This document shows, one piece after another, positions 37-25,206 of a DNA stretch of 41,485 nucleotides. The first letter of the stretch is position 1. The number at the start of each line of letters is the position of its first letter. The DNA comes from a virus: UHGV virus genome UHGV-0203597; one strand, given 5' to 3'. The position numbers and the translations under genes are program-made. The notes below the pieces were generated by a model. It searched no databases. It was not told the DNA's origin and saw only the letters and a list, made by a program, of their open reading frames with translations.

Positions 37-417
37 ATGAGAAAAGTATTTTTGATTTTTGGATTTATGCTTCTCGTTGGATGCCAGTCAGCTGCACAGT
101 TTGAAAGAAATATGCTTACGTGGCGCGGGCAGAGTATAGACGCAATGGTTCAGCAGTGGGGGTATCCTCAGGGAGAGCTTACATCTCCAGATGGAAACAG
201 AGTGTATGTTTACTCAAGCTCTGGTAGTTATAACGTACCACAAACCACAACGTATAATACTACGTCTAATCTAATTGGTAATACTATATATTCAAACACA
301 TACGCAACAACTGATGGCGGTTATACACTCCATTTCAGTTGCTCTGTTTACGTTGAGTTTGGTGCTGATAAGATTATTAAAAATGTTACATGGCGCGGTA
401 ATAATTGCGTTGCGTGA
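37..417 (+). CDS. Putative lipoprotein (moron; candidate superinfection-exclusion or lysogenic-conversion protein)
   Basis: ATG at 37 with AGGGG 6 nt upstream; signal peptide MRKVFLIFGFMLLVGC with lipobox LVGC; Ser/Thr/Tyr/Asn-rich mature part; AT-rich; no TTACC-N5-GGTAA site upstream; followed by hairpin terminator. Confidence 0.6.
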   Translation: MRKVFLIFGFMLLVGCQSAAQFERNMLTWRGQSIDAMVQQWGYPQGELTSPDGNRVYVYSSSGSYNVPQTTTYNTTSNLIGNTIYSNTYATTDGGYTLHFSCSVYVEFGADKIIKNVTWRGNNCVA

Positions 418-426: not shown

Positions 427-450
427 GGCCGCTTTCGCGGCCTTGTTTTT
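427..450. terminator. Rho-independent terminator hairpin GGCCGC-TTTC-GCGGCC plus T-tract
   Basis: Perfect 6-bp GC stem, 4-nt loop, then TTGTTTTT on + strand; lies between convergent genes; same 18-mer repeated at 3783-3800. Confidence 0.6.
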
Positions 451-610
451 AACGAATGCCACCGCCACCCGGGCGGGAATCCGCAGAACGCCCACCGCAG
501 CGGGAGCCGTCAGCGGCAGTATCGCTGTCGTGCTGACAACGACCGGCAAAGGCCTGAGTTGAAGCTACCAGAGACAACAAAACGAACAGTGCAGCAAATG
601 CTTTTTTCAT
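449..610 (-). CDS. Small secreted peptide (53 aa, SPase I-type signal, two Cys in mature part)
   Basis: ATG at 610; MKKAFAALFVLLSLVASTQAFA then GRCQHDSDTAADGSRCGG...; last gene of the minus-strand operon after the YafO-like gene; weak RBS. Confidence 0.35.
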   Translation of the reverse strand: MKKAFAALFVLLSLVASTQAFAGRCQHDSDTAADGSRCGGRSADSRPGGGGIR

Positions 611-691: not shown

Positions 692-1204
692 CTATGCAGG
701 CTTTTTGGATTTGTACGAATAATCCCACGGATAAACATTTCTACTAAGTGGAGCTGTATTCGTTCGTTCATGAAATAATTTTGTGAAATTCAATACGGAA
801 TCCATCCAAACTTTTGCGTTAGCTTTGGTGTGTGCGGGCGGGTCCCAATAAGCTAGTAAGGCTGCATCTCTTATTTCATTGACTGCATATATGAGATATG
901 CGTTACTGGTTGGTTTTGGCCTGTAATTTCCTTGTTCATCAATCAATCCATATGACCACTCATCCCAACACTGTTCAGTACATGAGTATGAATATGATGC
1001 ATATTCACCAATATTGACATGAACCTTTCTGAGATGGAAGCCTAATACTTCGTCTGGTCTTTCAAAAAGAGTATCTTTTCCCAGATCAGGATGATGACCA
1101 TGACGCCAGTGTTGTTTAAAAGCATCTTTTAGCGAAATCAGAAAGTCATCAGTTTTAAACTCACCAGTAGGTATAACCTTCCCGCTATACTCACTCAAAA
1201 ACAT
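692..1204 (-). CDS. YafO-family toxin-like protein (paralog 1)
   Basis: 170 aa; motifs HWRHGHHPDLGKDTLF, RKVHVNIG, YLIY, AALLAYWDPPAH recalled as matching E. coli YafO (RDGxLPDxFGRD, VAHIHL, LVYC, AWLLIAILKPEPH); 14-nt overlap with upstream gene. Confidence 0.5.
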   Translation of the reverse strand: MFLSEYSGKVIPTGEFKTDDFLISLKDAFKQHWRHGHHPDLGKDTLFERPDEVLGFHLRKVHVNIGEYASYSYSCTEQCWDEWSYGLIDEQGNYRPKPTSNAYLIYAVNEIRDAALLAYWDPPAHTKANAKVWMDSVLNFTKLFHERTNTAPLSRNVYPWDYSYKSKKPA

Positions 1205-1517
1205 CGAATTCCTCTTCCTTCATATGCGTTTCTAATGAGTTAAGCTGGCGGAAAGATATCTCTTTTGATTCTGCAGATGAGAGCTTTTTTATCCGCTTTA
1301 TATTCTTTGTGATAGGAATAGACATTGTATGCACATCAGCGGATGCTCTTGGCTTTGTGCTGATAAAAATATGGCGCAATGCCGCATTTTCACTATTGAA
1401 CGAGCCAATAGCTGATTTACGTGCTACAACCTTACCAGTAAAAATACGACTCTTGCTACGCTTTGCATGAGTTCCGCTTCTTACCGGACCTCTCATCACG
1501 AATCCAAGTTTTGTCAT
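1191..1517 (-). CDS. Small basic protein, putative cognate partner/antitoxin of YafO-like paralog 1 (no family recognised)
   Basis: 108 aa, Lys/Arg-rich with acidic C-terminus EEEFDVFE; GGAGA RBS; overlaps toxin-like gene. Confidence 0.4.
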   Translation of the reverse strand: MTKLGFVMRGPVRSGTHAKRSKSRIFTGKVVARKSAIGSFNSENAALRHIFISTKPRASADVHTMSIPITKNIKRIKKLSSAESKEISFRQLNSLETHMKEEEFDVFE

Positions 1518-1574: not shown

Positions 1575-1640
1575 TATTACGCGAATCTACATCACATCGC
1601 CAATGATTATTTTAAAGGCACATCCCTGTGCCGCCGCTCG

Positions 1641-2336: not shown

Positions 2337-2605
2337 AGTGGTTACCTTTTAGTCTGGTTAATCACCACTACCGACGCCAATCGGTTGGTGGTGAACTGTG
2401 CAGGGTTGGCGTAACCGGCTAAAAGGACCCGGCGCACCTTTCGGTGCCCCCACACAGCCCACCATAATACGAATGTGGCCGTGCTATACGCATAAAAAAA
2501 CCGCTTGCGCGGTGAATGCGCCTTTTAGTAATCCGGAACGCCAATCCCGGCACTGGATTTTGCCAGTGCCCGATTACTATGGCACAAGAGGAGTGCAATG
2601 TAAAT

Positions 2606-2620
2606 TTACCGCAAAGGTAA
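2606..2620. promoter_or_regulatory. TTACC-N5-GGTAA operator-like palindrome
   Basis: ttaccgcaaaggtaa in the 420-bp divergent intergenic region between the BRO-N gene and 2758-3285. Confidence 0.45.
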
Positions 2621-2730
2621 TGATAAATGCATAACTCACGTCATTTCAACCCTATGTGGTTTGATTGATCCCATTTCAGAAAATACCTGCCTATTTTTTT
2701 GCCAGTGAGCGTATACTTTCGATAGAATGT

Positions 2731-2745
2731 TTACCCTAAAGGTAG
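2731..2745. promoter_or_regulatory. TTACC-N5-GGTAg operator-like site (one mismatch)
   Basis: ttaccctaaaggtag, 13 nt upstream of the ATG at 2758. Confidence 0.35.
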
Positions 2746-2757
2746 TTGGGGGTGCCC

Positions 2758-3285
2758 ATGAACACGAAGAGAGTTACAGCGATGAGGCATAGACGCTTTG
2801 CCTTGAAAAGGCCTGAAAAAGAAAAAGAGCAAGAGATGGTGATTGAAGCAGCCGCTTATGCTGCAGCTATGGCAACTGCTGATGCGATTAGAAATTATGA
2901 AGAAGAGGATAATAAAAATTCCTATCGCATTTACTTATATGAGAGCCGTCACAGTGTTACAGACCATGAAGCATGCCTAAAAAAACAAGGGGAAGTATTC
3001 CACTGCAACCTTGCTGAGTACATTAGGAATGAAATGGAAAGGAATTTGGCTTTATCTCATTTTGGATACAAGAGTCAGGAAAGTGGTTTCGCTGGCTTTA
3101 AGGATAAAATTAACGAAAGGTGGCAACGTTTATACAAGCCACTTCAAGTTGATGAGAAAACTCATCAACTTGTTATGCATGAGGTCCCAAAGATGTCCGT
3201 AGAGAAATCCCATGCAATCTCGCGCAGGATGTTTGCACGCACTGCTGAAGACATGGCTCAGGAGCTCTACGACGATGCCGAATAA
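2758..3285 (+). CDS. Hypothetical charged helical protein, putative partner of YafO-like paralog 2
   Basis: 176 aa from ATG 2758 (alternative 2746); acidic C-terminus ELYDDAE; stop overlaps start of downstream toxin-like gene; unrelated to the 108-aa partner. Confidence 0.4.
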   Translation: MNTKRVTAMRHRRFALKRPEKEKEQEMVIEAAAYAAAMATADAIRNYEEEDNKNSYRIYLYESRHSVTDHEACLKKQGEVFHCNLAEYIRNEMERNLALSHFGYKSQESGFAGFKDKINERWQRLYKPLQVDEKTHQLVMHEVPKMSVEKSHAISRRMFARTAEDMAQELYDDAE

Positions 3286-3781
3286 ATTCCAGGGGTTGGT
3301 TCACCCTGGAATTTTTGGGAAGGACCCTGAGCTAATACCTATCAAAAACGCGTTCATAGATCACTGGCGCTACGGTCATCATAAGGATTTCGGAAAGGAC
3401 ACTCTGTTTCGAGATCCACCGAAAGAGATGCTGGAATATCACATACGCCACGTTCACTTAAACATCGGAAACTATACTGACAAGTTTGGTGAGAGCGGTA
3501 CGGAACAATGCTGGAAAAACTGGGCGTCTGGGAAGAAAGACAAGACCACTAACAAGCATAAAAAGATCCCAACCAGTGACGTGTATGTGATTTATCTGGT
3601 CACATCTGAACGCCATGCCTTCCTTCTGGATTATTGGGATGAACCAGCGCATAAGACAGTAGAAATTGACGAGCAGAAGCAAAAATTAGTTGTCGAGTGT
3701 GACAGAATTTTGCGGCTGAAAAAGTTAGAATCCATGCCGCGCGATGCAAGTTTGTGGGACCCAGAATTTTACGACTGTTAA
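3275..3781 (+). CDS. YafO-family toxin-like protein (paralog 2)
   Basis: 168 aa from MPNKF; motifs HWRYGHHKDFGKDTLF, RHVHLNIG, YVIY, AFLLDYWDEPAH align with paralog 1. Confidence 0.5.
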   Translation: MPNKFQGLVHPGIFGKDPELIPIKNAFIDHWRYGHHKDFGKDTLFRDPPKEMLEYHIRHVHLNIGNYTDKFGESGTEQCWKNWASGKKDKTTNKHKKIPTSDVYVIYLVTSERHAFLLDYWDEPAHKTVEIDEQKQKLVVECDRILRLKKLESMPRDASLWDPEFYDC

Positions 3782-3782
3782 T

Positions 3783-3808
3783 GGCCGCTTTCGCGGCCTT
3801 TTCTTTAT
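3783..3808. terminator. Bidirectional terminator hairpin GGCCGC-TTTC-GCGGCC plus T-tract (second copy)
   Basis: Same 18-mer as 427-444; between convergent genes ending at 3781 and 3805. Confidence 0.6.
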
Positions 3809-4062
3809 GTGGTTTGTTTTCGTAATTGTTCGGCACAATAGTCGAGATGTGTTTGCAGATCCTGCATAGACATCTGTGAGCTGGTGACGTAGTTAATCAG
3901 TGCAGTCAGTTCGGCAAGTGGGCCATCGACATTAAATCCATCCTTATCGAGATCCCGGAGTAATTTCATCAAGTGCGATCCCTCCACCAGTGACCTGACG
4001 CCTCCCGGCGTGTGAATCCTTTCGGTAAATCCGTCTTCCAGTGGATAGTGATACTGCTGCAT
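3805..4062 (-). CDS. Small Ant C-terminal-domain-like protein; candidate SOS-inducible antirepressor
   Basis: 85 aa from ATG 4062 (GGAGAAG RBS); paralogous to the C-terminus of the BRO-N protein; LexA box about 20 nt upstream. Confidence 0.5.
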   Translation of the reverse strand: MQQYHYPLEDGFTERIHTPGGVRSLVEGSHLMKLLRDLDKDGFNVDGPLAELTALINYVTSSQMSMQDLQTHLDYCAEQLRKQTT

Positions 4063-14742: not shown

Positions 14743-15327
14743 TTATTGTTTGTTTTTTTCGTTCTGGTTGATGACAAATTCAATGTAACTTTCGATCTTT
14801 GCTTTCTCGGTTTCGGGTAACAATGCGTAGCGTGAGCGGTCATAGTTGATAGTCGCAGGGTCGTGCGGGTGAATCAGTAGTTCATATCCGTGACGCCCGA
14901 ATGCGGATGCAACATTCTCCAGGGTGGAAATGGAAACGCTGACCTCATTGTTTAACAGGCGGCTGATTGTCACCTGGGCGACGCCGGATGCGCGGTGAAG
15001 TTTTCCCTGAGTTGAAAGGTCGCGGCTTTCACTCATCCAGCGTTCCAGGTTGTGAGCTGCCAGCTGACCAATGTCGCTTGGGCCGACAGGCTGAAAACCT
15101 TCCTGAGAAAGCGAGCGATCGATATCAAGCCAGTTACGGGGTTTATTGGCGGCAGCTTCAATTTTTCGCGCAACCTGGTCGCCGATAACCTTCTTGCCAA
15201 GAGCCCAGCGGTTTACCAGATTTGCCTGAGTTCCAAGTTTTTCTGCCATCCGCGTCTGAACACCATTGAATTCACGGTCGATCAAGTCGTTGAGATTTTG
15301 CCTGCGGACGTCCTGGATACTTTTCAT
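14743..15327 (-). CDS. Prophage repressor, two HTH domains, no LexA-like autocleavage domain
   Basis: 194 aa; HTH-like segments near residues 25-45 and 105-130; no Ala-Gly/Ser-Lys protease module; flanked by operator palindromes on both sides. Confidence 0.6.
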   Translation of the reverse strand: MKSIQDVRRQNLNDLIDREFNGVQTRMAEKLGTQANLVNRWALGKKVIGDQVARKIEAAANKPRNWLDIDRSLSQEGFQPVGPSDIGQLAAHNLERWMSESRDLSTQGKLHRASGVAQVTISRLLNNEVSVSISTLENVASAFGRHGYELLIHPHDPATINYDRSRYALLPETEKAKIESYIEFVINQNEKNKQ

Positions 15328-25129: not shown

Positions 25130-25206
25130 TGGCGTGGCATGCAGGATTCGAACCTGCGACCAACCGCTTAGAAGGCGGTTGCTCTGTCCAACTGAGCTAA
25201 TGCCAC
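25130..25206 (-). tRNA. tRNA-Arg (anticodon UCU), phage-encoded variant
   Basis: 77 nt GTGGCATTAGCTCAGTTGGACAGAGCAACCGCCTTCTAAGCGGTTGGTCGCAGGTTCGAATCCTGCATGCCACGCCA; full cloverleaf with 7-bp acceptor stem, GTTCGAATC T-loop, encoded CCA; D and T arms match recalled E. coli argU, acceptor and anticodon stems differ. Confidence 0.85.

Follow-up and report, generated by a model that had tools for sequence, protein, structure and literature searches.

A probable toxin-antitoxin-type cassette with a distant YafO-family toxin and a tail-conserved partner in the accessory island of a temperate podovirus

YafN-YafO of Escherichia coli is a type II toxin-antitoxin (TA) system encoded in the dinB-yafNOP operon, and its toxin is a ribosome-dependent mRNA interferase. 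Canonical YafO belongs to the RelE family and acts as a translation-dependent mRNA interferase, while yafNO is expressed via the SOS dinB promoter (PMC2814082). Here we describe a two-gene cassette (module 1, positions 692-1517, minus strand) of UHGV virus genome UHGV-0203597, a stretch of 41,485 nucleotides (nt) that was analysed in full and is called the window below. The cassette consists of a gene for a YafO-like toxin and an overlapping upstream gene, termed the partner. We consider it reasonably probable that module 1 is a type II TA-type cassette in a phage accessory island, with a toxin, a neutralising partner and repressor-controlled regulation as proposed below. Its features, together with a downstream neighbour, are as follows.

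692-1204, minus strand: toxin gene, 170 amino acids (aa); divergent member of the YafO family and RelE superfamily, predicted ribosome-dependent mRNA endonuclease
1191-1517, minus strand: partner gene, 108 aa, predicted antitoxin (PHROG 5933, "unknown function"; WP_000163643.1, "hypothetical protein")
1191-1204, minus strand: overlap of partner stop and toxin start, 14 nt, translational coupling, read from the sequence; kept in all loci of partner types T1 and T3 (defined below)
1209-1214, minus strand: Shine-Dalgarno sequence of the toxin, GAGGAA, inside Glu codons of the partner, read from the sequence
1440-1517, minus strand: basic motif conserved at the partner N-terminus (residues 1-26, MTKLGFVMRG..KR.K.R), from alignments A1 and A7; low non-synonymous (pN) and synonymous (pS) divergence
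1194-1292, minus strand: module conserved at the partner C-terminus (residues 76-108, IKKLSSAESKEISFRQLNSLETHMKEEEFDVFE), from cross-clade alignment, hidden Markov model (HMM) and hhalign comparisons, selection and the helix predicted by AlphaFold2 (AF2)
449-610, minus strand: ORF (open reading frame) for a 53-aa signal-peptide protein (PHROG 14503, "membrane associated protein")

The three ORFs at 692-1204, 1191-1517 and 449-610 are found in the sequence with the sizes, the overlap, the basic partner and the acidic partner tail given in a preliminary description of this DNA, which had read the region as a YafO-like effector with an unrecognised partner. The 108-aa partner ORF shares 14 nt with the 170-aa toxin ORF (ATGTTTTTGAGTGA), an arrangement that recurs among 89 viral loci encoding toxin relatives and four Serratia loci: a co-oriented upstream ORF overlaps the toxin start by 11-26 nt in 93 of 93 loci (40 + 49 viral, 4 Serratia), and wherever the partner is of the module 1 type (T1) it lies upstream of the toxin with a 14-nt overlap, Serratia included. 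Small, adjacent, co-oriented genes that are coupled and co-occur form the layout expected of a type II TA system, and module 1 displays it. The ORFs, the overlap, the Shine-Dalgarno sequence and the start are intact and conserved across genera.

The preliminary description also had the operon continue into the 53-aa protein, which holds for some loci and not for others. The gene starts 81 nt downstream of the toxin gene, encodes a signal-peptide-like N-terminus (MKKAFAALFVLLSLVASTQAFA/G) and is present in 16 of 16 E. coli T1 loci. It occurs in 3 of 9 T1 loci of other genera, in 5 of 8 T3 loci and in 23 of 44 T4 loci; none of the five clade-5 loci carries it, nor do the Serratia loci. This patchy presence places the gene outside the conserved two-gene unit: it is a frequent downstream neighbour of whichever cassette fills the slot, not a conserved component.

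The toxin is truly related to YafO, though distantly: it belongs to the YafO branch of the RelE superfamily, and a RelE/HigB-like fold is predicted for it with confidence. The YafO motifs named for the 170-aa protein in the preliminary description occur in its sequence and line up with those of E. coli K-12 YafO: both proteins carry G..PD.G[KR]D.L[FY], R..H[VI], [LV][VI]Y and P.(A/P)H, and in alignment A2 they have the columns G36, G42, D44, R59, H62, Y106 and H125 in common. The Pfam model PF13957 (YafO_toxin) matches the toxin at E=9.5e-4 and 19.7 bits over profile positions 7-100 of 101, and precomputed PF13957 matches are present on the toxin relatives P0015 (76% identical) and the gp44 type; in NCBIfam the toxin had no match. 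Profile-profile comparison establishes the wider homology: hhalign aligned a profile of 30 phage-type sequences, with no canonical YafO among them (A4), to a profile of 17 canonical YafO sequences (A5) with a probability of 91% and E=1.1e-6 over 109 columns, spanning toxin residues 18-144 and YafO residues 13-128. The last homologue search had started from alignment A2, which includes K-12 YafO, so that its recovery of canonical YafO is circular, and it was used solely to gather sequences for hhalign.

Structurally, the AF2 model of the toxin is confident (predicted local distance difference test score, pLDDT, 91.5; predicted template-modelling score, pTM, 0.87) and adopts a RelE-like α/β fold; against the viral structures of BFVD it had no match at E≤0.001. 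Two parts of the toxin have no counterpart in YafO: an insertion (residues ~66-92) in which C and W are conserved, and 25 additional residues at the C-terminus. Purifying selection acts on the gene (pN 0.11-0.16 vs pS 0.6-0.84). K43, R59, H62, Y106 and H125 are candidate catalytic residues, through which the toxin, by analogy with YafO, would cleave mRNA on the ribosome. The module had been put forward as plausibly undescribed, which for its toxin does not hold: RefSeq (PGAP) already names the product of 692-1204 (WP_000479990.1) "type II toxin-antitoxin system YafO family toxin", while the partner is unannotated. What is new here is the architecture of the partner and the tail module common to the partner types.

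In the case of the partner, 21 of 108 residues are Lys or Arg, and the C-terminal end reads ..KEEEFDVFE. An exhaustive HMMER family-profile search of 1.84 billion representatives recovered a family of only 11 proteins, all full-length relatives. The earlier statement that the partner is no Phd/YefM-like antitoxin and cannot be placed in a named family is borne out: it has no match in Pfam, NCBIfam, PADLOC or the PDB, no partner type matches Phd/YefM, a ribbon-helix-helix (RHH) family or any other Pfam family at E≤5, and no DNA-binding domain was detectable in Pfam, PDB family-profile or Foldseek searches. AF2, run with a 7-sequence alignment, gave a poor model (pLDDT 62) with a helix at residues 89-107, for which Foldseek returned no PDB match at E≤0.001. 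The profile searches and the fold search suggested in the preliminary description ended in a weak PF13957 match for the toxin and in no match for the partner. Mimicry of ribosomal protein L18 was considered on a lone phmmer match to 8fmw_AQ (E=0.21, 79 collinear residues) and rejected as chance, the 11-sequence family profile having no PDB match at E≤10.

One alternative is that the partner is an ordinary, diverged YafN/Phd-YefM or RHH antitoxin that autoregulates its operon through a palindrome, which we regard as very improbable. Its appeal lies in the end of the partner, where ..MKEEEFDVFE resembles the YafN end ..MTDDDFNDFKE by eye, in an N-terminus made of a short hydrophobic strand followed by basic residues, and in a palindrome (described below) between promoter and start codon. 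However, homology of the two tails is not supported: partner-tail HMMs score YafN at about -1, and a shuffle test gave p=0.016 for this partner and 0.09-0.96 for the other types, which is not significant after multiple tests. The lack of any Pfam match for any partner type and of a PDB match for the family profile also speaks against this alternative, as does the palindrome itself, which is phage-wide (15 copies), precedes T2 and T3 partners as well, unrelated as these are, and occurs at promoters outside the cassettes.

Divergence among relatives divides the partner into three regions. The first ~26 residues (MTKLGFVMRG..KRRK.R) are conserved, with pN 0.12-0.28 and pS 0.12-0.49; the middle changes almost neutrally (pN 0.4-0.66, pS 0.7-0.87); and the last ~33 residues are again conserved (pN 0.09-0.25, pS 0.46-0.69). 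That the cassette genes are decaying remnants without current function is scarcely credible: the near-neutral middle and the poor partner model could be taken as signs of decay, but the ORFs, overlap, Shine-Dalgarno sequence and start persist across genera, and the toxin and both partner termini are under strong purifying selection. As a separate observation, the first 26 partner codons (1440-1517; the same region in loci L003, L022, L023 and L026) have an unusually low synonymous divergence relative to mid-gene, which hints that the 5′ end of the cassette is constrained at the nucleotide level or marks a recombination boundary.

At least five partner types exist, and they track the toxin clades: T1 (module 1), T2 (the second cassette of the window, described below), T3, a 59-aa type represented by TL-2011b gp45, and a 62-aa type. 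In their N-terminal bodies these types show no relationship or have recombined, whereas the last ~35 residues of T1, T2 and T3 align without gaps, anchored on the stop codon; the gp45 and 62-aa types show the same tail pattern by eye, the gp45 type weakly. The tails are as follows.

T1 partner tail: IKKLSSAESKEISFRQLNSLETHMKEEEFDVFE
T2 partner tail: VPKMSVEKSHAISRRMFARTAEDMAQELYDDAE
T3 partner tail: VKKMTFTEACKISQELSDSREDRLMRANFDGPE
gp45-type (59 aa) partner tail: VKVTMTKDHASRVSRAFFDSRNNKENYEFVCVAE
62-aa-type partner tail: VKLVTISPKKATDISRRMAEAMSRTCDGSFEIA

The module is helical and takes the form V-K-x-[MLI]-[ST]..[SA]..[IV]S...[FY][DE]..E-stop. Compared with hhalign, the tails of T1 and T2 match with a probability of 92.6% and E=4.6e-7, those of T1 and T3 with E=1.2e-4, and those of T2 and T3 with E=2.9e-4. 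An HMM built from T1 partners only was run against the 2,814 distinct six-frame ORFs of all loci: after the T1 self-matches, 14 partners of other clades, T2, T3 and clade-5 among them, precede the first unrelated ORF, each of them matched at its C-terminal end. Loci L034 and L035, whose partners end in a T3 tail, and L044, whose partner ends in a T2 tail, show directly that body and tail have recombined; in these loci the partner gene lies upstream of the toxin at ~2500-3014. The N-terminal bodies are homologous (MH/QRTKKAGPN..., E=8e-7), and the tails match different toxin clades.

Because the tail tracks the toxin clade while the bodies are shuffled, as expected of a type II antitoxin, we infer that the C-terminal module may be the toxin-binding, neutralising element of the partner. 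Under this proposal the partner would neutralise the toxin through its last ~33 residues, a helical module whose type would follow the toxin clade irrespective of the N-terminal body carried. RelB, YefM and DinJ are type II antitoxins whose toxin-binding segment provides the analogy for the partner tail.

The window contains a second, paralogous cassette (module 2) at 2758-3781, with the following features.

2758-3285, plus strand: partner gene of the second cassette, 175 aa (PHROG 9503), with a body unrelated to the module 1 partner and a tail of the same type, ..VPKMSVEKSHAISRRMFARTAEDMAQELYDDAE
3275-3781, plus strand: toxin gene of the second cassette, 168 aa, 46% identical to the module 1 toxin
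2699-2728: promoter-like site of the second cassette
2731-2745: predicted operator (palindrome) of the second cassette
3783-3798: terminator of the second cassette

Partner and toxin overlap here by 11 nt. The RefSeq/PGAP name for the product of 3275-3781 is likewise "type II toxin-antitoxin system YafO family toxin", although PF13957 does not match this toxin. PADLOC returned weak, sub-significant Cyclase, Cmr1 and Csx1 matches for the second partner (E≥3e-4), which we regard as compositional.

Upstream of module 1 lie a promoter-like site, a palindrome and an immunity-type region, which comprise the following elements.

1560-1574, no strand assigned: TTACC-N5-GGTAA palindrome adjoining the -10 of the module 1 promoter-like site; predicted phage-repressor operator
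1598-1603 (-35) and 1574-1579 (-10), minus strand: module 1 promoter-like site TTGGCG-18-TAATAT, read by eye
1560, 2606, 2731, 4139, 9057, 14609, 14671, 15383, 15431, 15768, 17708, 17770, 22330, 22348 and 25529: the 15-nt palindrome sites of the window
1617-1632, minus strand: GC-rich hairpin GGCACA-GGGA-TGTGCC just past the ant stop, possibly a weak terminator between ant and the cassette
1641-2336: gene for a Bro-N antirepressor (ant)
2384-2469, minus strand: C4 antisense RNA (Rfam, 77.7 bits), upstream of ant
2494-2569, minus strand: isrK Hfq-binding RNA (Rfam, 72.3 bits), upstream of ant

The palindrome occurs in 15 copies in the window (≤1 mismatch) where 0.64 are expected, and none of 100 shuffles reached 15. 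It lies ~45 nt before the T1 partner start codon, where a comparison of upstream regions finds it kept across genera while its flanks diverged, and the same palindrome stands upstream of T2 and T3 partners. An inverted-repeat scan of 1400-2900 returned zero pairs at its settings; the palindrome emerged from the comparison of loci. Copies occupy intergenic and promoter positions: they are located on both sides of the HTH_3 repressor gene (14743-15327), before the integrase gene and before several early and late gene blocks, and three promoters of the island have one each, namely those of module 1 (1560-1574), the ant operon (2606-2620) and module 2 (2731-2745). At these three promoters, and at least at a PL-like site and the 17770 site too, the first T of the palindrome directly adjoins the -10 hexamer or lies within it. 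Since its 15 copies are phage-wide, lie on both sides of the repressor gene and occur at the ant and module 2 promoters, the palindrome is probably the operator of the prophage repressor, to judge from its sequence and placement, with the cassette controlled by the repressor rather than expressed in the lysogen. Both cassettes would then belong to the repressor's regulon, silent in the lysogen and activated together with the early genes upon infection or induction.

In the related phage ZX5, a repressor and a Bro-N antirepressor control the lysis-lysogeny decision, as found by overexpression in a study whose tests were confined to repressor, antirepressor and integrase. In the window, the C4/isrK tandem lies downstream of a promoter-like site at 2649..2620 and brackets a bidirectional terminator-like hairpin at 2500-2521. 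Related loci have a hairpin of different sequence at the same place as 1617-1632. A further gene at 3805-4062 (minus strand, 85 aa, PHROG 450) encodes the Bro-N antirepressor's C-terminal domain as a separate protein, 42% identical to residues 150-223 of the 1641-2336 product (E=1e-19), and this protein could modulate or compete with Ant.

Several points weigh against the proposed reading of module 1 as a repressor-controlled TA-type cassette. The toxin's 19.7 bits fall below the PF13957 gathering score of 25, the curated threshold for the family, and BLASTP between the toxin and K-12 YafO is insignificant (E=1.6). The toxin-binding role of the tail rests on conservation and on the analogy with RelB, YefM and DinJ, and part of the tail's acidic character may follow from the Shine-Dalgarno sequence that lies within it (GAGGAA, AGGAG) and from the overlapping toxin start. 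The module 1 promoter is weak by consensus (8/12), falls below the threshold of a promoter scan and was read by eye. The palindrome beside the -10 suggests repression without proving it, the binding protein being a prediction, and palindromes also occur near late genes (tail fibre, terminase and portal region), a distribution not usually seen with a simple CI-type repressor.

The window represents, in circularly permuted form, the genome of a temperate E. coli podovirus of the phiV10/epsilon15 type (Uetakevirus). Over the first ~8.8 kb it is identical to the end of a prophage in E. coli B19695, and phages such as vB_EcoP_PAS61 and TL-2011b match it at ~96-97% over at least 8.8-26 kb. The best-matching E. 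coli chromosome, NZ_CP196120.1, is collinear with the window only over the first ~8.8 kb and continues past the lysis genes into host genes (yfgI...), so the window is a permuted complete phage genome and not a stretch of that chromosome. The placement of the pair in a phage accessory island was correct: module 1 lies in a hypervariable island, with virion/ejection-protein genes on one side and the tail-fibre gene on the other, that holds eight genes in the window, one in PAS61 and a few in phiV10. No YafO-like gene was found in the corresponding island of phiV10 or PAS61, and the cassette is therefore optional. Elsewhere in the island and the genome the following features were noted.

37-417, plus strand: protein of 126 aa with a lipoprotein-type signal (..FGFMLLVGC; PHROG 3716, unknown), a moron-like island gene convergent with the cassette
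426-443: strong hairpin terminator ending the 126-aa lipoprotein-type gene
25130-25206, minus strand: phage-borne tRNA-Arg (anticodon TCT)

Module 1 is present in 69 of 5,426 complete E. coli genomes, about 1%, and sister cassettes in many more. Both genes occur together in 69 of 69, at ≥99% identity and on chromosomes only; tblastn found no match to the partner on plasmids. Homologues of module 1 are found in prophages of Serratia, Enterobacter, Salmonella, Citrobacter and Raoultella. A literature search found no paper on these phage cassettes.

This setting lends some weight to a second alternative, in which the same TA pair is a moron for abortive infection or superinfection exclusion, transcribed in the prophage state, with an incoming phage triggering loss of the partner and thereby freeing the RNase. 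The cassette sits in a hypervariable island alongside lipoprotein and signal-peptide morons, at a position equivalent to the P22 immI/sieA region. It is optional, being absent from phiV10 and PAS61, and the phage carries two diversified paralogous cassettes belonging to a family of at least five toxin clades with matched tails, typical of conflict-driven diversification. Even so, we hold this alternative to be unlikely: the phage-wide palindrome lies directly at the cassette -10, as it does at the ant and early promoters, and no PADLOC model matches toxin or partner, a search of the PADLOC-DB v2 models with toxin, partner and 53-aa peptide having given no match at E≤1. The preliminary description had proposed a TA or abortive-infection module. 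The TA-type layout agrees with the first term, while the second is weakened by these two results, since an operator-like palindrome at the promoter predicts silence in the lysogen.

A third alternative accepts the predicted co-regulation with the early genes through a common operator but dispenses with addiction and defence: the toxin would be a YafO-like early RNase for host mRNA shut-off or phage transcript processing, and the partner a stable regulatory or specificity subunit or a chaperone. No DNA-binding domain of the kind typical of type II antitoxins is detectable in the partner, and the insertion at ~66-92 and the 25-aa C-terminal extension of the toxin, both foreign to YafO, would suit such a function. 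Yet related phages dispense with the cassette, the antitoxin-first order, start/stop overlap and strict pairing are the classical type II TA layout, and a housekeeping role in the phage would not readily account for the diversification of matched pairs. We judge this alternative to be quite unlikely, and return to the TA-type cassette as the preferred reading.

Within that reading, candidate biological roles are inter-phage competition, commitment of the induced cell and host shut-off. A more far-reaching version, which we advance tentatively as a possibility, holds that the ~33-residue module is a portable, previously undescribed YafO-neutralising peptide mounted on interchangeable bodies, and that the cassettes belong to a P1-like, repressor-controlled podovirus regulon (one operator, about 15 promoters and a c4/isrK-ant immunity region), firing at induction or infection and not acting as lysogenic-conversion genes. 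If this were true, the cassettes might, for instance, eliminate cells in which the lytic programme is aborted, or keep out competing phages with a different toxin/tail allele. If the predicted repressor control holds, these TA cassettes would be deployed in the lytic and not the lysogenic state, which changes how such prophage-borne TA systems are read.

The family may also be of practical use. A search of the PDB copy returned neither a YafO nor a YafN entry, so that no solved structure there shows how YafO is neutralised. Phage homologues of YafO with partners that have just a 33-residue tail in common would offer a minimal peptide for the study of neutralisation, and matched toxin/tail alleles for the study of specificity. 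A single antitoxin class could replace the label "hypothetical protein" for the partners (PHROGs 5933 and 9503 and the gp45 type).

Among described systems, E. coli YafN-YafO is the closest. The toxins are homologous by profile-profile comparison over nearly the full length of YafO, the antitoxin gene, a predicted one in module 1, lies upstream and adjacent in both, and expression is probably linked to DNA damage or induction, in module 1 by way of the prophage repressor as we infer it. The differences are equally clear: the phage toxin has 170 aa and YafO 132, the former carrying the C/W-rich insertion (~66-92) and the C-terminal extension and scoring below the Pfam gathering score; the phage partner is not Phd/YefM-like and has no detectable similarity to YafN; the phage genes overlap by 14 nt, whereas the yafNO genes are separated; and module 1 is phage-borne and exists in several swapped variants. 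Other RelE-superfamily toxins have only 6-17% sequence identity to the phage toxin: HigB2 of Vibrio cholerae (PDB 5mje), HigB1 (7nbu), YafQ (4q2u), RelE (2khe) and YoeB (2a6q). Moreover, higBA loci are toxin-first with a helix-turn-helix antitoxin, in contrast to module 1, where the antitoxin-like gene comes first and has no detectable DNA-binding domain.

The regulatory setting of the island resembles the immI region of P1 and P7 (c4 antisense RNA-icd-ant) and Gifsy-1 isrK-anrP in having isrK and C4 RNAs upstream of a Bro-N antirepressor gene, and it resembles the dispersed C1 operators of P1 in that one operator-like palindrome is spread over the whole phage genome. We know of no TA cassette that forms part of the P1 immI region. 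The likeness to P1 covers the regulatory setting and not the cassette, and here the operator is a symmetric TTACC-N5-GGTAA in a podovirus. APSE phages are reported to have the same isrK/c4/Bro-N arrangement (PMC7313666). Finally, the cassettes are comparable to "mix-and-match" type II TA systems, where a single toxin family teams up with unrelated antitoxin families: here, too, toxins that are homologous go with partners of unrelated or recombined bodies. They differ in that a short common C-terminal module stays in each partner type, so that the partner is a chimera of a fixed tail and variable bodies and not an altogether different antitoxin.

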